In this document: positions 10,764 through 24,277 of the stretch, piece by piece
Layout: every line of letters begins with the position of its first letter
How positions within the stretch are numbered: position 1 is the first letter of the stretch
NCBI GenBank assembly: GCA_036960405.1
Contig: JBALWS010000005.1
Coordinates: forward strand, 10,137-74,136
DNA from: Halopseudomonas sp.
GTDB taxonomy: Bacteria; Pseudomonadota; Gammaproteobacteria; Pseudomonadales; Balneatricaceae
Reading direction: 5' to 3'
Length of the DNA: 64,000 nucleotides
The notes under the pieces: generated by a model
The model's database searches: none
The model's input: only the letters and a program-made list of their open reading frames with translations
Told to the model about the DNA's origin: nothing
Made by a program: the position numbers and the translations under genes

Positions 10764-12023
10764 GTGCGCACGACGGTTGCTATCGGCCATCCGCTTGATA
10801 AGCTAGACGCTTATCTTAGTGTCGTCTGGATTCGAGCTGTGCCTGAACGCCTACAACCGTTGCAATACCTGCTACTCCCGTTGATCATTCTTGGCGGGGT
10901 ATATGTTTACCTGCCGCAACTGCCACCGTTTTCATCACCCTGGGAAGAACTGCTGCCCTCGGTACCCTATCTGCTCGGCGGTTTAATCGCGCTGCTCGGG
11001 TGGCACTTCAATAGCGGCCGCAGCCTGCTGGCCTGCATTTTGATTTTGCTCACCAATCTCAGCCTGCGCCAGCCATTCGAGCCGCTGTACCAGCAAACCC
11101 TGCTTGTACTGTTGCCGTTAAACATGGCTCAGATCGCCTGGTACCGAGAGCGAGGGGTGCTCAGCCCGACAGCACTGGTAAGACTGGCCTGGATTGCAGC
11201 CCAGATAGCGGCGGTGACTGCGGCGATCCACTATCATCCAGAGCAATTGCTGCAAGGCCTTAACTTCCACCCGCAGCAGCTTCCTGAGCTACCACTGCCT
11301 TTCGTCGTCCTCAGTACTTTGGCAATTGCAGGGCTGGCGGTTCTAGCCCGACTACTCAGCCAGCAAGATCGATTTGATGCGTACCTACTGATCAGCGTGG
11401 TGGTTAGCTGTGGCCTGATTCTGTTGCCGATACCCCAGCGTGACTTGAGTTTGGTGATATCGGTATTGCTAGCGCTGTGGCTGTTCAGTCTGTTTCGACA
11501 CAGTCATAGCTTGGCTTACCTGGATGATCTGACCGGTCTGCCCGGTCGTCGGGCACTCAACGAACACCTCACACGTCTGGGAAAGCAGCACTGCTTAGCG
11601 ATGCTTGATGTCGACCATTTCAAAAAATTTAACGATAAACATGGCCACGATGTAGGCGACCAAGTACTGAAACTGGTTGCCTCAAAAATCGCCAAGGTAA
11701 GACAAGGTAAAGGTTACCGCTATGGCGGCGAGGAGTTCTGTGTGGTGTTTGCCGGGCGCAAGCTAGAGCAAACCTTGGAACCGCTAGAAGAGCTGCGCCA
11801 AGCAATCGAAGATGCCCGTCTGCAGTTACGCAGTGCCAAACGTCCCCAGAGCAATGATCAAGGTAAAAAACAGCGCGGGACTGCCGGTGCCAAGAGCAGC
11901 AGCGTATCAGTCACGATCAGCATCGGTATCGCCGAACACCAACCCAAGCAGAACACCCTAAAGGCTGCCGACAAAGCGCTCTATAAAGCTAAAGCTGCTG
12001 GTCGTAATAGAGTCTGTCACTGA
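10764..12023 (+). CDS. Membrane-bound diguanylate cyclase (start uncertain)
   Basis: Many TM helices; DDLTGLPGRR, DVDHFKKFNDKHGH, RYGGEEF, ADKALYKAKAAGRN; no RxxD I-site. Confidence 0.92.
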   Translation: MRTTVAIGHPLDKLDAYLSVVWIRAVPERLQPLQYLLLPLIILGGVYVYLPQLPPFSSPWEELLPSVPYLLGGLIALLGWHFNSGRSLLACILILLTNLSLRQPFEPLYQQTLLVLLPLNMAQIAWYRERGVLSPTALVRLAWIAAQIAAVTAAIHYHPEQLLQGLNFHPQQLPELPLPFVVLSTLAIAGLAVLARLLSQQDRFDAYLLISVVVSCGLILLPIPQRDLSLVISVLLALWLFSLFRHSHSLAYLDDLTGLPGRRALNEHLTRLGKQHCLAMLDVDHFKKFNDKHGHDVGDQVLKLVASKIAKVRQGKGYRYGGEEFCVVFAGRKLEQTLEPLEELRQAIEDARLQLRSAKRPQSNDQGKKQRGTAGAKSSSVSVTISIGIAEHQPKQNTLKAADKALYKAKAAGRNRVCH

Positions 12024-12188: not shown

Positions 12189-12557
12189 TTAAGCAGCTTT
12201 CTTACCAGATACCTTCTCAACTGCAGCTTCAACTTCAGCAGCAGTCTGCTTAGCAGAATCTTCGATTACTGCAGAGAAAGCTTCTTTAGCTTCGGTGAAC
12301 GCAGCAATGCTCTTCTCTGTAGTGTCGGTCATCTTGGCTTCCAGAGCCTTGAAGAACTTAACTTGCAGGTCCATAGCAGCTTTTGGATCTTGGCACTTAG
12401 ACAGAGCTTGGAACTGCTCAAGGCTGGCGTTAACAACGTCAGTCATAGTGTCTTTTTGAACGCCGGCCAGAGTTTCCAGGACCTTTTTGTTGGTCTCAAC
12501 CAGATCCATAACAGGCTTCATGCGAGTGTTCATATCTGCGAATAGATTATCGTACAT
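12189..12557 (-). CDS. phaP: Phasin family protein (PHA granule protein), copy 2
   Basis: Ala/Lys/Glu-rich amphipathic helical 122 aa protein; about two-thirds identical to 12801-13160 by manual alignment; start set at MYDNLF. Confidence 0.78.
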   Translation of the reverse strand: MYDNLFADMNTRMKPVMDLVETNKKVLETLAGVQKDTMTDVVNASLEQFQALSKCQDPKAAMDLQVKFFKALEAKMTDTTEKSIAAFTEAKEAFSAVIEDSAKQTAAEVEAAVEKVSGKKAA

Positions 12558-12639
12558 GGTCATTCCTCTAAGTGTGATAGGTAATATCGAAATCCAGGGT
12601 GGGCACACTACAAGGGTTTCCCAACTCGCCCAGCGACTG

Positions 12640-12650
12640 GTGCGCTGCAC
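12640..12650. promoter_or_regulatory. TGC-N3-GCA palindrome (PhaR-like box) in phasin 2 leader
   Basis: GTGC-GCT-GCAC; near-match half site at 12712-12725 upstream of the -35. Confidence 0.6.
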
Positions 12651-12674
12651 AACTTAGTGCCTACAATTGGGCCT

Positions 12675-12702
12675 ACTATAGCAGTGGCAAACCGACTGTC
12701 AA
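12675..12702 (-). promoter_or_regulatory. sigma70 promoter of phasin 2
   Basis: Minus strand TTGACA-16 bp-TATAGT; hexamers identical to the phasin 1 promoter. Confidence 0.78.
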
Positions 12703-12748
12703 TATCTTTTTCCGCACCGCACAAGAAGTTCTGACAGTTATTTCAAGC

Positions 12749-12782
12749 AAAAAAAATCCCCCGGACCTTAGGGCCAGGGGAT
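12749..12782 (-). terminator. Intrinsic terminator of phasin 1
   Basis: ATCCCC...GGGGAT stem followed by an 8-T run on the minus strand. Confidence 0.8.
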
Positions 12783-12800
12783 CTGTATTCGCGCTTTGGC

Positions 12801-13160
12801 TTACTTGCCAGTCGCTTTCTTAACCGCACCTTCGAATTCAGCAGAAACTTTCTTGCTGGCTTCTTCGACAGAAGATACGTAAGCGTCTTTGGCTTCGCTG
12901 ATCGCTGCGATGCTCTTTTCAGCAGTGTCGGTCATCTTCGCTTCCAGTGCCTTGTAGAAGTTGACCTGCAGCTCCATAGCAGCCTTAGGGTCTTGGCACT
13001 GAGAGACAGCCTTGAACTGCTCCAGGCTAGCGTTAACAACGTCGGTCATGGTCTCTTTCTGAACAGCAGCCAGAGTTTCCATCGCCTTTTTGTTAGTTTC
13101 AGCCAGCTCCAGCACAGGTTGCATGCGAGCTTTCATATCTTCCATAAATTTATCGTACAT
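12801..13160 (-). CDS. phaP: Phasin family protein, copy 1
   Basis: 119 aa paralogue of 12189-12557; same helical Ala/Lys-rich composition. Confidence 0.78.
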   Translation of the reverse strand: MYDKFMEDMKARMQPVLELAETNKKAMETLAAVQKETMTDVVNASLEQFKAVSQCQDPKAAMELQVNFYKALEAKMTDTAEKSIAAISEAKDAYVSSVEEASKKVSAEFEGAVKKATGK

Positions 13161-15192: not shown

Positions 15193-16359
15193 ATGATTTC
15201 CAGCTACAAAGGCTTCAATTTTGACCTTGGCGAAACCAACGACATGCTGCGCGATCAGATAAACGCCTTTGCCGCCGCAGAGATCGCCCCCCGTGCAGAA
15301 CAGATCGACATAGACAACGAATTCCCGAATGACTTATGGCGCAAGTTTGGCGACATGGGGCTGCTAGGTATCACCGTTCCCGAGGAGTTCGGCGGTGTCG
15401 GGATGGGTTACCTGGCTCATATCATCGCGATGCAGGAGATCAGCCGCGCGTCCGCTTCAGTCGGTCTCTCCTACGGTGCGCACTCAAATCTGTGTGTTAA
15501 CCAGATCAACCGCAACGGCAGCACCGAGCAGAAGCAAAAATACCTGCCTAAGTTGCTCAGTGGTGAGCACGTTGGAGCGCTGGCGATGTCCGAGCCCAAT
15601 GCCGGTTCCGATGTGGTCAGCATGAAGTTGAACGCTCGTGATAACGGTGACCACTACCTGCTCAACGGTAACAAGATGTGGATCACCAACGGTCCCGACG
15701 CCAGCACCTACGTGATCTATGCCAAGACCGATATCAGCAAAGGTCCTCACGGTATCACCGCCTTTATCGTCGAACGCGATGCGCCCGGATTCTCACGCCA
15801 CCAGAAACTCGACAAGCTAGGCATGCGCGGCTCCAACACCTGTGAGCTGGTGTTCCAAGATTGCGTGGTGCCGAAAGAGAATATCCTTGGCCAGCTCAAC
15901 GGTGGCGTCAAAGTCCTGATGAGCGGTTTGGATTATGAACGCGCCGTACTGTCTGGCGGCCCGCTGGGGATCATGGACGCCTGTATGGACCTGGCGGTAC
16001 CTTACATTCGCGATCGTCAACAGTTCGGCAAGGCAATTGGTGAATTCCAGCTGGTACAGGGCAAAATGGCCGATATGTACACCGGCATGAACGCGGCTAA
16101 GTCTTACGTCTATTCGGTAGCACGTGCCTGTGATCGCGGTGAAACCAGCCGTAAAGATGCAGCAGGCGTGATCCTCTATACCGCCGAGCTAGCGACCAAG
16201 ATGGCCCTGGATACCATCCAGCTTCTGGGCGGCAACGGTTATATCAACGAATTCGCCAGCGGCCGCCTGCTGCGCGATGCCAAGCTGTACGAAATCGGTG
16301 CGGGTACCTCGGAGATCCGCCGGATGCTGATCGGCCGCGAGCTATTCATCGGCAACTAA
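15193..16359 (+). CDS. ivd: Isovaleryl-CoA dehydrogenase
   Basis: [60 protein letters not shown]. Confidence 0.95.
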
Positions 16360-16372
16360 GCAACTCCACAAC

Positions 16373-16402
16373 AAAAAGGGCAGCCAAGATCTGCCCTTCT
16401 TT
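16373..16402. terminator. Bidirectional intrinsic terminator between ivd and the cyclase
   Basis: AAGGGCAG-7 nt-CTGCCCTT flanked by A and T tracts. Confidence 0.75.
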
Positions 16403-16434
16403 GTGCCCCAACGTCTCCTGTTAGCGGATAACCG

Positions 16435-17496
16435 CTAGTAGTGCTGGCGACACTCCTCTTCAAGAAAGTACAGATTCATCGTTCCAAATCCTTTTACTTC
16501 GGTCTCGCCTCTTTCACTGCAGACAAAACCATCTTTGATCAGCTCGAAGGTTGCCTCATTAAGAGTGATCCGCATCGGTTCCGACAGACTTTCCATCCTG
16601 GCCGCCAGGTTAACCCCCGGACCGAATAGATCGTAGACGTACTTTTGAATACCTACCAGCGAGCCGATCACGGTACCGGTATTCATCCCGATACGGCAGC
16701 GCCACTGGGTCGGGTGGGCGGCGTTGCGCTTCTCAAGATAGCGCCGCATCCTTAACGCCACCTTGGCGATATTAGCGGTGTGCTCGGTGCTTTCCTGCGG
16801 CACCCCTGAAACCGCCATATAGGCATCACCGATGGTGCGTATCCGCTCGCAACCAAACATCTCGACGATACGGTCGAAGGCAGAAAAGATATCATTGAGC
16901 TCAGACACCAGCGCGCTGGCATCCTGCGAGATCGTCATCTCGGTAAAACGGACAAAATCGAGCATCAGTATCGATGCATTTTCAAACTTCTGCGGGGTCG
17001 TGGTGCCGAAGTCTTTAAGTTCTTCGTAGACCTGCTTGGGCATTACGTTTAGCAACAATCGCTCGACCCGGTCCTTCTCTTTCTCCAACTCCTTGGCATT
17101 TTTCTCCGCCATCCTCGAATAGGAGTCCAGCATGTACTGGCCCTCCTTTTCTTTGGAGATATCCCGGCCCTCTACCAAGATTCGGCTAGCCCCATCGATC
17201 TCCACCGTACGTAACTCGATCCGTACCGGAATCGTCCGCCCTTTAACTGCAGTTTCCGATTCAAAGCTATACCGTCCACGATCGCGAATACGTTGAGTAG
17301 CTTTCTCAGCATCCAAGGATATCAATCGCTGCGGCAACCGCTCCTGTCCTTCATCGAGCAGCGGAAACCAGTCGAAGAAACAGGCGTTCTCAAACAGTAA
17401 CGCCCAGCTATCGAGTTCCACCAGCGCTACCGCGTGACCGATATGCTGCAGCAGTTGTTTGGTATCGATCGATTCATCCATAGTCGTCGCCATCAA
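16435..17496 (-). CDS. Class III adenylate/guanylate cyclase with N-terminal PAS-like domain and coiled coil
   Basis: ILMLDFVRFT (metal Asp), RTIGDAYM, YDLFGPGVNLAARMES; helix LEKEKDRVERLLLNVMP before the catalytic domain. Confidence 0.92.
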   Translation of the reverse strand: MMATTMDESIDTKQLLQHIGHAVALVELDSWALLFENACFFDWFPLLDEGQERLPQRLISLDAEKATQRIRDRGRYSFESETAVKGRTIPVRIELRTVEIDGASRILVEGRDISKEKEGQYMLDSYSRMAEKNAKELEKEKDRVERLLLNVMPKQVYEELKDFGTTTPQKFENASILMLDFVRFTEMTISQDASALVSELNDIFSAFDRIVEMFGCERIRTIGDAYMAVSGVPQESTEHTANIAKVALRMRRYLEKRNAAHPTQWRCRIGMNTGTVIGSLVGIQKYVYDLFGPGVNLAARMESLSEPMRITLNEATFELIKDGFVCSERGETEVKGFGTMNLYFLEEECRQHY

Positions 17497-17855
17497 GGCT
17501 TGGTTACGATAAAACGCTTGCGGCCAGCCACCTCGCGGATGATCAAAGAGATGTCGCCCTCCTCAAGCTCAAAGTCTTCTAGGGTGAATCTCAACAACTT
17601 CACCACCTCTTCAAAAGAAGCCTCGTCGATATCAAGGCGTGCGTGCACCCGCTCAAGCGCCTCATTGGAGAAACTGGCCGGCCCTCCCATGATCGAAGCA
17701 ATAAACTTAGTCTGGTGATCGATCTGGCGGCGCATATCCACCCCTTCAAAATAGGGATTGAGGCGCTCTGACTCGAGCACTTCGCCGTAAAAAGCCGACA
17801 CAATGCGGCTGACGGTTGCGAACCCACCGTATTTATCGAATAAGGCTTTATGCAT
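17493..17855 (-). CDS. Group I (N) truncated 2/2 haemoglobin
   Basis: LFDKYGG, IVSAFY (B9-B10 FY), LNPYF, HQTKFI, MGGP, proximal His in VHARL; GGAGG SD before MHKAL; 4-bp overlap with the cyclase. Confidence 0.9.
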   Translation of the reverse strand: MHKALFDKYGGFATVSRIVSAFYGEVLESERLNPYFEGVDMRRQIDHQTKFIASIMGGPASFSNEALERVHARLDIDEASFEEVVKLLRFTLEDFELEEGDISLIIREVAGRKRFIVTKP

Positions 17856-17992
17856 GCCCCCTCCGGGCCATCGGCTAAACAAACAGATAAGAAACTCAGG
17901 CGACAAACGCGCAGCTTGGAGGCTGTATTTAAATCGAACCAAGCCTGAAACCGTTCACTAGCAGATAGCAGTTACGCGGATATAAAGCCATC

Positions 17993-18034
17993 GCCAACCG
18001 CCAACCGCCAACCGCCAACCGCCAACCGCCAACC
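17993..18034. repeat. Perfect heptamer tandem repeat (GCCAACC)x6
   Basis: Six exact copies read directly, intergenic. Confidence 0.97.
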
Positions 18035-18126
18035 GGTCATCATTAAATACCAACGAAATCAGTCTGGATAATTACAGTCGCTACTTCAGATTAGCTCAAA
18101 TATGGCGCATCGTCCGCCACAAAGAA

Positions 18127-18196
18127 GGGTTGATTGGTCAGACGGCTATGGCTAAATCAGCCATTGGAAGAGTTTAACGCCAGCGACAATCAACCC
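18127..18196. repeat. 70-bp element with 10-bp terminal inverted repeats and inner hairpin
   Basis: GGGTTGATTG...CAATCAACCC; inner ATGGCT-AAATC-AGCCAT at 18148-18164. Confidence 0.6.
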
Positions 18197-18261
18197 AAGA
18201 CAGAGGCCGCAAGCCAACAACAGCTTGAATATCAGGATACGTTTTGAGTTCATTGATAGGC

Positions 18262-18813
18262 TCAGCGAATCAACAGAGCAGCACAGAGCTGGCGCAGCTG
18301 GGCTTCGTCGGCAAGCTCCGCCGAAGAGGTGTTAAGTAGGCTACTACCGAAAATATAGCTATAGAACAGATAGGCACGGGCGTAGGCATCTTCTTCGGAA
18401 TCTGACAGCGGGCGATAGAGACTGGCTACCGAGATTAAACGCTGCTCATCAACCTGCGACACTACAGCAGCGGCCGCCGGATCACTACGCGCCCAATCCC
18501 GCACCGCTAACTCGATCGCATTACCTCGAGGGTTGGAGCGGTCCATATACAAGCGCAGCAACTCTTTGAGAATTTCATGCGCCGACTCATCACCGGCAAC
18601 CTGGCGCTGAATGGTCTGAATCCGCCCTTCTCGCCAAGACTCTAACAGCTGTTCCAACAACGCTGGCCGATTTTTAAAATGCCAATAGAAACTGCCTTTG
18701 GTGACCTTGAGTCGCTTGGCCAGCACCTCGACTTTAACACTGGCAACGCCCCCCTCTGCCAATGCAGACATCGCTTCGTGAACCCAGGCTTCGCGCTTGA
18801 GTTTTGAATTCAT
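18262..18813 (-). CDS. TetR/AcrR family transcriptional regulator
   Basis: VKVEVLAKRLKVTKGSFYWHFKNR HTH; ELAVRDWAR. Confidence 0.93.
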   Translation of the reverse strand: MNSKLKREAWVHEAMSALAEGGVASVKVEVLAKRLKVTKGSFYWHFKNRPALLEQLLESWREGRIQTIQRQVAGDESAHEILKELLRLYMDRSNPRGNAIELAVRDWARSDPAAAAVVSQVDEQRLISVASLYRPLSDSEEDAYARAYLFYSYIFGSSLLNTSSAELADEAQLRQLCAALLIR

Positions 18814-22395: not shown

Positions 22396-24234
22396 TTAGC
22401 TGTCGACGGTCGCTTCGGCCAACGCCTGCTTCGGATTTTTGGGATAGTAACGCTCGGGTAAACGGTCGATATGACTAAAGAAGCGCGTGTCCTTGTACGG
22501 CATCTTCATAAAACCCGCGACCCCCAGTCCCTTAATCTGCGGTACCGCATCCAGAATCTGTTGCAAACAGCTAACGAATTCGGACTCCTGAGCAGGGTTC
22601 AGCAGCTTGAAGTGACTATGAATCTTGAGGTGGCGTTCGAGACTCTCGAAAATGATCAAACCGGTATGGTGCAACTGATTAAGCTGTTTGATGGTAGCGA
22701 TAATCGCTTCCGGTAGTTCCAGGTTCTCCTCGGGGTCACGACCGTCTTCAAAGTAAGAGTGCAGCCGACTCTGGTCTTCCAGGTCCGGCACCGCCGCCAC
22801 CTCGTAGGGAATATGCTGCTTGGAGTCAGCAACAAACGGCAGTACAGCGCTAGTTCGTTCGATATGCAGCGTGCAGCGCGCGTCGAACAGGCAGCTTTTG
22901 AAGATACCTTGCCGATACACCGAGCGCGCCAGATTGACCAGATTGTTGACCGTCGCGACAAAGGCTTCACGCTGATCGGGGTTGTACAGGTTAAGGCTCG
23001 AGTCTATATAGACCCCGTCTGTTTCCCAACGTACCGCCAGCCCGCCCACCACCGGAAACTTAGCCAGACGGCTGACGGCGGCCAGAAAAGCTTTTTCGGT
23101 CTCCCCCATACCTTGAAGGAAGTTTTTGTAATAACGATCAAACTGGACATCATCAATATCCAGATCAGGGCTCTCGACCCCCTCCTCTTTCAGGAACGCT
23201 TTACGCGAACTGTACACCACCGAATCCATGGTCCGTGCAGGCAGCACCCATACCGGAACCAGCTGCACCAGTGGAGGCTGCGGCAGGTCGATCAGCATCA
23301 GTCGATTGATACCGGCCATGTTGCGTAACCAGTAATCCCCCGCCTGCTGGCGCACCACAGGGTCGGCATCGAGCAACCGTTCCAATACCCGCGCCAGTTC
23401 CTGCGGCAGCCCCAGCGAGGTGGGAGGAATCGCATGATGACCGAAGCGGCTCGATTGACCCGAGGCCAAGGCATAAAGGGTTCCGGCTGCGCCCTGCTCG
23501 TCAAAGCGCGGCGTCGAGAGTCCTCCGTTGAGCTGTTCATCGCCAATAAAATACACATCGCCTAATCGGGCGTTGCTGTGCTGCAAATCATCCGACATCA
23601 ACTCCATCACATTGGCGCTCACGTGCTGTTGGTTTTGATCCAATTGAGCAAACACCGCCGAGCCCCAGTCGATCAGGCCAATCTTTTCAGTTGTCGGATC
23701 AAAGACAATATTGGAGGGTTTGATATCGCCGTGAACCAGCGGCCGCTGTGACTGCACCGAAGCACCACGCAACGCGACCAGAATATCGGCTAGCTGGGCG
23801 GCGATATGCACCACTAATCGCGGCGACAACGGCCCACACTGTAACGCTAGCTGCTCCAGATCCAGCCCCGGCACCCGCTCCATCACCATAATGGCTTGGC
23901 GACGAATCCGCTGGAACTCGATCAATTTGGGTACCAGCGGGTGATCGACCTGAGACAGCAAAAAAGCCTCTTCCTCAAGCCGGTCCTGAACATGCTGCGG
24001 TAACGTAATACGGGAAAACTTAAACACCAATTGGCGTCCCTGACGGTCAACCCCGCCAAAGACAAAACCAAATGCCCCCTTGCCGATCATCTCAATATCT
24101 CGATAACCCAGCTGTTCGAGCTGCTCCTGACACAGGCTGAACCAGTTCTTGAGCTTGCGCGCATCATCCTGGCTGAGCAGGTAGATAGACTGCTCTTCGG
24201 GAATATAGAACTGCTGTAGATCGGGTTTATCCAT
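22396..24234 (-). CDS. Hanks-type (Ser/Thr) protein kinase with unknown C-terminal domain
   Basis: GKGAFGFV, LVFK, alphaC Glu in RLEEEA, HGDIKPSN, DWG; no TM; start 24234 or 24243. Confidence 0.88.
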   Translation of the reverse strand: MDKPDLQQFYIPEEQSIYLLSQDDARKLKNWFSLCQEQLEQLGYRDIEMIGKGAFGFVFGGVDRQGRQLVFKFSRITLPQHVQDRLEEEAFLLSQVDHPLVPKLIEFQRIRRQAIMVMERVPGLDLEQLALQCGPLSPRLVVHIAAQLADILVALRGASVQSQRPLVHGDIKPSNIVFDPTTEKIGLIDWGSAVFAQLDQNQQHVSANVMELMSDDLQHSNARLGDVYFIGDEQLNGGLSTPRFDEQGAAGTLYALASGQSSRFGHHAIPPTSLGLPQELARVLERLLDADPVVRQQAGDYWLRNMAGINRLMLIDLPQPPLVQLVPVWVLPARTMDSVVYSSRKAFLKEEGVESPDLDIDDVQFDRYYKNFLQGMGETEKAFLAAVSRLAKFPVVGGLAVRWETDGVYIDSSLNLYNPDQREAFVATVNNLVNLARSVYRQGIFKSCLFDARCTLHIERTSAVLPFVADSKQHIPYEVAAVPDLEDQSRLHSYFEDGRDPEENLELPEAIIATIKQLNQLHHTGLIIFESLERHLKIHSHFKLLNPAQESEFVSCLQQILDAVPQIKGLGVAGFMKMPYKDTRFFSHIDRLPERYYPKNPKQALAEATVDS

Positions 24235-24251
24235 AGACACCATCAGAAACG

Positions 24252-24277
24252 ATAAATAAAAGGGGAGCAAGCTCCCC
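24252..24277 (-). terminator. Intrinsic terminator between bkd operon and kinase
   Basis: Minus strand GGGGAG-CTTG-CTCCCC followed by TTTTATTTAT. Confidence 0.7.

Follow-up and report, generated by a model that had tools for sequence, protein, structure and literature searches.

Two overlapping genes in a 64,000-nucleotide stretch of Halopseudomonas sp. DNA (contig JBALWS010000005.1, positions 10,137–74,136; hereafter the window) raise the question of why a small haem protein should be encoded directly ahead of a nucleotidyl cyclase. The upstream gene specifies a group I truncated haemoglobin (trHb), the downstream one a protein composed of a PAS domain, a signalling helix and a class III catalytic domain. 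The original prediction, made from the DNA letters, held that the globin replaces the H-NOX domain of animal soluble guanylate cyclase (sGC) as a sensor acting in trans; near-universal pairing of the two genes supports this as far as sequence comparison goes. We consider it probable that the two genes encode a two-protein haem sensor, in which a stand-alone trHb acts in trans on a dedicated PAS receiver, as H-NOX does with sGC. The genes in question are as follows.

17493–17855, minus strand: group I (N-type) truncated haemoglobin gene, 120 amino acids (aa); open reading frame (ORF) and sequence, Pfam, solved-structure matches, conservation
16435–17493, minus strand: PAS / signalling-helix / class IIIa nucleotidyl cyclase gene, 352 aa plus stop; ORF, Pfam, structures, AlphaFold, Foldseek

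Conservation of the gene pair

The pairing was surveyed in three scans. The first was anchored on the cyclase, with one genome per species; 344 relatives were found and 80 loci kept. A globin orthologue (43–93% identical) lies directly upstream and on the same strand in all 78 informative loci, and in the remaining two the contig ends inside the cyclase gene. Anchoring on the globin gave 30 loci, and in every one the gene that follows aligns with the cyclase, starting at the N-terminal (PAS) domain. The third scan, anchored on the clade motif [LQ][IM]DHQTKF, found 443 relatives in species-representative genomes, from which 77 new loci were taken; a PAS-domain gene follows directly in 76/76 informative loci, the 77th being cut 124 nt past the globin. 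When the scans are pooled, both genes are present in 189 of the 193 loci, which represent 157 unique pairs, and they are adjacent except in one che-type operon. In three of the remaining four loci a contig end interrupts the pair. The fourth (P0329/L113) encodes a PAS-HisKA kinase, with a gene for a receiver domain ahead of it but no globin, on a contig of just 2.3 kb.

Carriers of the pair span at least eight phyla and include Gamma- and Alphaproteobacteria, Chloroflexota, Actinomycetota, Gemmatimonadota, Bacteroidota, Planctomycetota, Spirochaetales and Nitrospinae. The source organism is close to Motiliproteus: the window pair is 90–93% identical to proteins of a Motiliproteus metagenome-assembled genome. 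No third gene is conserved beside the pair in its flanks. The pairing of globin and PAS domain is beyond chance, and the count of conserved pairs does not bear out sporadic pairing. In each of the 157 unique pairs the globin has an ORF of its own, and no globin–PAS fusion was found among the 120 best globin matches (115–159 aa) or the 150 best PAS-domain representatives. The absence of fusions from these best matches is consistent with a partner that acts obligately in trans.

The author of the original prediction knew of no characterised system with this pairing. We likewise found no description of a globin–PAS/cyclase pair in the searchable literature, which is suggestive only, most subscription journals lying outside that scope. 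Among the papers retrieved, the trHb of Roseobacter denitrificans (PMC4319818) belongs to group II, outside this clade, the Legionella trHbN (PMC4256840) is unrelated to this pairing, and trHbs are mentioned merely in passing in PMC1592074 and PMC8717448.

Interchangeable outputs of the globin and PAS cassette

A search of 1.84 billion proteins with the N-terminal 165 residues of the cyclase protein gave just 202 cluster representatives at E ≤ 1e-3. In the full-length representatives, the PAS domain is fused to class III cyclases, to SpoIIE/PP2C phosphatases or to HisKA-HATPase, LytS-type and CheA-like Hpt-HATPase kinases, some of the HisKA-HATPase representatives bearing extra PAS, GAF or receiver domains. 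Outputs in the 157 unique pairs comprise 142 cyclases, 3 PP2C phosphatases, 2 LytS kinases, 3 HisKA kinases and 1 CheA, the other 6 being truncated genes. The gene context of six non-cyclase members places a Bac_globin gene directly upstream or at the head of the operon in five; the sixth is the one on the 2.3-kb contig. The loci with such outputs are listed below.

L111: hybrid (HisKA) kinase with globin
L115: GAF (HisKA) kinase with globin
L114: LytS kinase and LytTR regulator with globin; LytS also at L118 and L125
L116: PP2C phosphatase with globin; SpoIIE/PP2C also at L107 and L154
L112, 205–4968: che-like operon of globin, soluble methyl-accepting chemotaxis protein (MCP), CheY, CheX and PAS-CheA
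L107, 1707–4045 (Urechidicola vernalis): RsbW-like kinase, STAS protein, globin and PAS-PP2C

The operon of U. vernalis is a complete partner-switching module. The globins from all output contexts belong to one clade with the same signature, and because the same PAS domain follows this clade, or shares its operon, across differing outputs, the coupling is to the sensor domain, as a sensor/receiver pair would lead one to expect. Comparison of the loci thus indicates that what stays constant beside the globin is the PAS domain and not the cyclase. The original prediction had tied the globin to the cyclase: the pairing is indeed conserved, but its constant element is the PAS domain, and the outputs also include PP2C phosphatases, histidine kinases and CheA. 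A sensor/receiver pair with swappable outputs has the pattern of a signalling cassette, which is hard to reconcile with a purely enzymatic globin.

Extending the argument from the window to the whole clade, we lean towards regarding these globins as a widespread class of stand-alone trHb signalling proteins that would dock on a PAS receiver and control cyclases, PP2C partner-switching phosphatases, histidine kinases and CheA, with displacement of His E10 as the switch. Such proteins would form a third family of trans-acting bacterial haem sensors of gas or redox state, beside H-NOX and NosP.

The globin and its haem pocket

Two sets of globin residues are referred to below.

Globin residues F22 (B9), Y23 (B10), F36 (CD1), Q44 (E7), H47 (E10), Q48 (E11) and H71 (F8): haem pocket
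Globin residues 10–11 and 57–58: Gly-Gly motifs (AB and EF)

A group I 2/2 globin with Phe-Tyr at B9–B10 and a proximal His had been claimed, and these residues (F22-Y23 and H71) are in place in a protein that matches Pfam Bac_globin with an E-value of 4e-16 (59.7 bits; cutoff 21). The top solved structures are all group 1 trHbs (Tetrahymena 3aq5, Synechococcus GlbN 2ksc and Paramecium 1dlw; E ~5e-12), and the first 20 structure matches (E up to ~3e-6) are group 1 trHbs, cyanoglobins, HbN or algal THBs; group II (HbO-type) chains enter the list at ~5e-6, mixed with more group 1 entries. NCBIfam holds no family for either the globin or the cyclase.

Residues F22, Y23, F36, Q48 and H71 are kept in 96–100% of 95 orthologues. 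In a larger set of 158 clade globins, G10-G11, Y23, F36, Q48, G57-G58 and H71 are kept in 97–100%. The positions conserved in at least 95% of these aligned sequences are G10, G11, F12, Y23, F36, D46-H47-Q48-T49-K50-F51, G57-G58-P59 and H71, and F36, H47, Q48, G58, P59 and H71 are strictly invariant. Position E7 is Leu or Gln across the orthologues. By these features the protein is a group I trHb, and its intact pocket suggests that it binds haem b and diatomic ligands.

The invariant H47 aligns with the E10 His of Synechococcus GlbN (2ksc). In GlbN, exogenous ligands push the E10 His off the iron, with a large rearrangement of the E helix. Hexacoordination is documented for the trHbs of Synechococcus and Synechocystis, and a His or Lys in position E10 may act as the coordinating residue (PMC4720485). 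By analogy, the invariant His E10 suggests a hexacoordinate switch in the present clade.

The same pocket bears on a different explanation, in which the globin has an enzymatic role, as an NO dioxygenase, a peroxidase or a scavenger of O2 similar to mycobacterial trHbN, and is merely co-expressed with its neighbour, shaping NO or O2 levels or protecting the cell without any control of the partner. The distal residues (Tyr B10, Gln E11 and Leu/Gln E7) are those of NO-dioxygenating trHbN proteins, and group I trHbs are mostly described as detoxifiers of NO or reactive oxygen species (PMC4256840; PMC3820574). However, a detoxifying globin would have no reason to stay with one PAS domain in eight phyla while the output is swapped among cyclase, PP2C, three kinase types and CheA. 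Moreover, no reductase partner is conserved nearby, and the invariant D-H-Q-T-K-F motif of the E helix, which is specific to the clade, is not required for NO dioxygenation. We therefore regard a purely enzymatic role as unlikely.

The PAS-cyclase protein

Three regions were delineated in the 352-aa protein.

17161–17463, minus strand: N-terminal PAS-fold receiver domain, residues 11–111; AlphaFold, Foldseek, conservation
17014–17157, minus strand: signalling helix / coiled coil and cyclase-transducer-like segment, residues 113–160, YMLDSYS...ERLLLNVMPKQVYEELK; modelled helices, weak HNOBA match
16456–16992, minus strand: class III cyclase catalytic domain, residues 168–346; Pfam, alignment to adenylyl cyclase 9 (AC9), family conservation

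A PAS-like domain, a coiled coil and a catalytic domain with both metal-binding Asp residues and the Asn/Arg pair had been recognised in the original prediction, and all of them are found here. The AlphaFold model has PAS topology (beta-beta-alpha-alpha-alpha-alpha-beta-beta-beta) over residues 11–111, with a pLDDT of 88.3 and a pTM of 0.78 for the isolated domain, followed by a long helix at 113–150 and another at 153–160. The top 50 Foldseek matches of the isolated domain are all PAS/LOV (probability 1.00, TMq up to 0.69); sequence searches with the domain also match multi-PAS proteins, and Pfam PAS models stay under their cutoffs on the window protein. For the full-length model, the best Foldseek match is human sGC alpha (8hbf_A; E 4e-21), with 392 aligned columns over PAS domain, coiled coil and catalytic domain, which agrees with the sGC-like build that had been proposed. 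Pfam HNOBA matches residues 102–160 weakly (18.4 bits; cutoff 23.4); it reaches its cutoff in L144, a relative, and is among the domains recorded for P0015, P0079 and further family members. The linker helix is highly conserved in the family, and this conservation, together with the borderline HNOBA matches, fits transmission through a signalling helix into the catalytic dimer.

The catalytic domain matches Pfam Guanylate_cyc over residues 168–346 with an E-value of 4e-49 (167 bits). Solved-structure matches of the protein include AC9, Rv1625c-type cyclases, GC-A and sGC, those to AC9 and the Rv1625c-type class IIIa enzymes being the closest. Alignment with the C1 and C2 domains of AC9 maps the metal-binding residues to D179 and D223, the specificity residues to R219 and D288, and the transition-state residues to N295 and R299. 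Since all catalytic residues are present in one chain, a homodimeric cyclase is predicted. The catalytic hexad, D-R-D-D-N-R in the window protein, is complete in 106 of 140 full-length cyclase partners. Among these complete hexads position 219 is Lys in 71 and Arg, as in the window, in 35, and D288 is conserved in ~98% of the orthologues. The product is predicted to be cAMP and not cGMP, as Lys/Arg219 and Asp288 favour ATP.

Four residues of the PAS domain (A23, N36, F39 and R86) are invariant over all output types and are candidates for contact with the globin or with a bound group. Family alignments reveal no conserved His or Cys in this domain, and it is therefore unlikely to hold haem itself. 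A second alternative is that the PAS domain is the true sensor, with a small ligand or haem of its own, and that the globin is an accessory which delivers haem or which buffers or converts the ligand (e.g. nitrate from NO). The Foldseek neighbours of the PAS model do include the haem-PAS sensors FixL, EcDOS and DosP, and N36 and R86, invariant as they are, could bind an anionic ligand or a haem propionate. Yet the structural matches reflect the generic PAS fold, at 12–21% identity, and the domain has neither a conserved His, Cys or Met able to ligate haem nor a LOV or flavin motif, position 38 being Cys in the window and Arg in the family consensus. Such a division of labour appears quite improbable to us.

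Proposed mechanism and points against it

Under the two-protein sensor that we favour, the 120-aa trHb would bind haem b and report either the redox state of the haem or a diatomic gas, which is most likely O2 or NO. Being a separate polypeptide, it would dock on the PAS domain at the N-terminus of the cyclase. Depending on its ligand, the globin would change, probably in that the invariant distal His E10 leaves the iron and the E helix shifts in the manner of cyanobacterial GlbN, and this change would then travel through the PAS domain and the signalling helix/transducer to the homodimeric class IIIa catalytic domain. The outcome would be altered synthesis of a cyclic nucleotide, predicted to be cAMP, and in some lineages a neighbouring Crp-type regulator or cyclic nucleotide monophosphate (cNMP)-binding kinase may read the signal.

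Several points weigh against this mechanism. What the comparison shows is the gene structure, the domain folds, the catalytic residues, the tight linkage of this globin clade to this PAS domain across phyla and the swappable outputs. Haem binding, complex formation and regulation are deduced from homology and gene order, and the direction of regulation, the identity of the ligand and the nucleotide made are likewise inferred. Truncated haemoglobins of the N type with Tyr B10 and Gln E11 are best known as NO dioxygenases and have a very high O2 affinity, which is unusual for a reversible gas sensor. The PAS domain may have its own ligand, since invariant N36 and R86 could line a pocket. At position 219 the window protein has Arg where canonical adenylyl cyclases have Lys, which makes the product less certain. 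About a quarter of the cyclase partners, mostly from Rhodobacterales, have lost the Asn/Arg transition-state pair, and cNMP synthesis therefore cannot be the universal output. Finally, no cNMP receptor lies beside the pair here, and none was found in the window by tblastn when Crp-type regulators and cNMP kinases that neighbour the pair at other loci served as queries.

The gene junction and the upstream region

Two short elements lie at the start codons.

17491–17495, minus strand: TGATG stop/start overlap of globin and cyclase; read from the sequence, recurs in orthologues
17857–17864, minus strand: Shine-Dalgarno-like GGAGGGGG, 1 nt (a single C) before the globin ATG; read from the sequence

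The orthologues likewise begin at an ATG that matches 17855, and the closest relative (L001) has a similar GGAGG ahead of the same globin ATG. For the cyclase there are two possible starts. The TTG at 17496, which is the choice of the ORF lister, gives the 4-bp overlap of the original prediction, whereas the ATG at 17493 gives an overlap of 1 nt within TGATG. The same TGATG junction is present in the distant orthologues L012, L046, L063 and L021, which have no TTG there, and the ATG is thus the likelier start; the 4-bp figure holds only if translation begins at the TTG. With either start codon the globin and the cyclase are translationally coupled. In all 78 informative loci of the cyclase-anchored scan the junction is an overlap or a gap of less than ~120 nt.

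No box of the FNR/CRP type (TTGAT-N4-ATCAA, ≤2 mismatches) was found upstream of the globin in 17856–18261. A sigma-70 scan of 16200–18400 returned no promoter-like site, and terminator-like matches in the same interval fall inside coding sequence, at chance frequency. Over the whole window, TTGAT-N4-ATCAA near-palindromes (≤2 mismatches) number 70, against 24.7 +/- 4.5 in dinucleotide-preserving shuffles, and are thus ~3 times commoner; many of them contain GATC, and the excess may reflect tetranucleotide or codon bias instead of binding sites.

A perfect heptanucleotide tandem repeat occupies 17992–18035, ~140–180 nt upstream of the globin ATG (6.3 copies of CGCCAAC on the plus strand, GTTGGCG on the gene strand). 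L001, the proteins of which are 90–93% identical, holds only one or two copies at the same place, so that the copy number differs between close strains. The repeat may be a variable element in the promoter region.

Candidate readers and neighbouring genes

In 17 of the 80 loci of the cyclase-anchored scan, the pair has a gene for a cNMP_binding protein as its neighbour. Crp-type regulators lie beside the pair, convergent and downstream, in Alphaproteobacteria and Marinobacterium zhoushanense. In Chloroflexota and Actinomycetota, cNMP_binding-HATPase kinase genes are found directly upstream of the globin, overlapping it in the same operon. These regulators and kinases are probable readers of the cyclase product. 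The following cNMP_binding neighbours were recorded.

L043, 5132–5842: cNMP_binding neighbour
L076, 5048–5782: cNMP_binding neighbour
L003, 6641–7279: cNMP_binding neighbour
L015, 2114–3583: cNMP_binding neighbour
L040, 2151–3587: cNMP_binding neighbour

A third alternative is that the cyclase belongs to a Pycsar-like anti-phage system, with the globin as an unrelated or accessory neighbour. In its favour are the proximity of cNMP-binding proteins to the pair in some loci and weak PADLOC matches of the cyclase to PycC (best 35 bits, E 1.7e-9). That likeness is one of general class III homology, 35 bits against the 167 bits to Pfam Guanylate_cyc, and the specificity residues of the cyclase are of the purine type. 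The cNMP-binding neighbours belong to the Crp-type regulators and the histidine kinases and not to the transmembrane or TIR effectors; the globin has no PADLOC match; and in the window the neighbours of the pair are housekeeping genes, with no effector present. A role in defence is extremely unlikely, and this reading was rejected.

In 37 loci, mostly from Rhodobacterales (Roseovarius, Roseobacter, Tropicimonas and Silicimonas), the globin and PAS-cyclase genes are followed by one for a PAS-HisKA-HATPase kinase. These extended operons include L119–L143 and others (e.g. L119, 4914–6401; L124, 3850–4905). Many of their cyclase domains are without the Asn/Arg transition-state pair (FGPTVSEAVRY is an example), and these may be pseudo-cyclases through which the signal reaches the kinase.

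Elsewhere in the window, three further features were recorded.

10764–12023, plus strand: predicted membrane protein ending in a GGDEF diguanylate cyclase domain; lies 4.4 kb away from the pair and is not conserved beside it in other genomes
12189–13160, minus strand: two tandem phasin-like genes (Phasin_2); judged by eye, their products strongly resemble each other for most of their length, which suggests a local duplication
22396–24270, minus strand: 624-aa protein with an N-terminal Ser/Thr protein-kinase domain (~56–215) and a C-terminal region of ~400 aa that has no Pfam match

Comparison with known systems

Animal sGC and the predicted system share a haem sensor, a PAS domain, a long signalling helix and a class III catalytic domain. 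They differ in that the haem protein here is a 2/2 globin instead of H-NOX and resides on a separate polypeptide. The cyclase protein begins with its PAS domain and has no H-NOX (HNOB) match, and this PAS domain shows no sequence match to the PAS part of HNOBA in sGC. Furthermore, animal sGC is an alpha/beta heterodimer, whereas the cyclase here is a predicted homodimer with all catalytic residues in one chain, and the Glu and Cys that specify GTP in sGC are replaced by Arg/Lys and Asp, which point to ATP. The pair would work like sGC but is not a member of the sGC family, having no H-NOX domain, no Glu/Cys pair and no heterodimer.

In bacteria, H-NOX and NosP occur as stand-alone proteins that regulate histidine kinases or diguanylate cyclases encoded in the same operon. 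The resemblance to these consists in a small haem protein that is encoded directly upstream, acts in trans on varied signalling enzymes (as we suppose for the present globin) and is rarely or never fused to them. The likeness is one of operon logic only, the fold here being that of a truncated globin and unrelated to theirs. Unlike H-NOX and NosP, the present globin always has one dedicated PAS receiver as its partner, and the outputs include class III cyclases and PP2C phosphatases.

In globin-coupled sensors (HemAT, DosC/YddV, AfGcHK and HemAC-Lm of Leishmania), a haem domain of the globin fold likewise controls MCP, kinase, diguanylate cyclase or adenylate cyclase outputs. Their 3/3 sensor globin is related to protoglobin and fused in cis at the N-terminus, whereas the globin here belongs to group I of the T family and is a separate protein, scoring 13.2 bits against Pfam Protoglobin (cutoff 25). 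The locus is not a globin-coupled sensor.

The GlbN proteins of Synechocystis and Synechococcus (2ksc, 1rtx and 1s69) are group I trHbs with the same Tyr B10, Gln E11 and His E10; the present clade differs from them in having no conserved His in the C-terminal region for the covalent haem link of GlbN. To our knowledge, GlbN has no signalling partner and no PAS-encoding neighbour.

As regards the catalytic domain, mammalian adenylyl cyclases and class IIIa cyclases of the Rv1625c/Cya type are the closest in sequence (AC9, E 2e-51; 4p2f and 5o5k, ~1e-40). These relatives are also close in fold (7yz9, TMt 0.90 in Foldseek) and have the same catalytic hexad. In contrast to both groups, the present protein is soluble, with a PAS domain instead of a membrane anchor, and has Arg for the specificity Lys.

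Implications

Truncated haemoglobins are widespread, yet beyond NO detoxification in a few species their physiological roles are mostly unclear; through a clade invariably linked to a signalling receiver, they would gain a definite part in sensing. If the proposed reading is true, it would be the first clear signalling role for group I truncated haemoglobins and would add a new family of haem sensors to bacterial gas sensing. As a counterpart of animal sGC, the pair would also be simple, soluble, homodimeric and genetically tractable; as the haem module is separate, transfer from haem to PAS domain to coiled coil to cyclase could be dissected by mixing the components. The range of swappable outputs (cAMP synthesis, partner-switching phosphatase, two-component system and chemotaxis kinase) suggests a portable sensor/receiver part for synthetic biology. 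The carriers are mainly bacteria of marine waters, sediments and saline lakes, including the Roseobacter group, for which gradients of O2 and NO matter for behaviour and nitrogen cycling.

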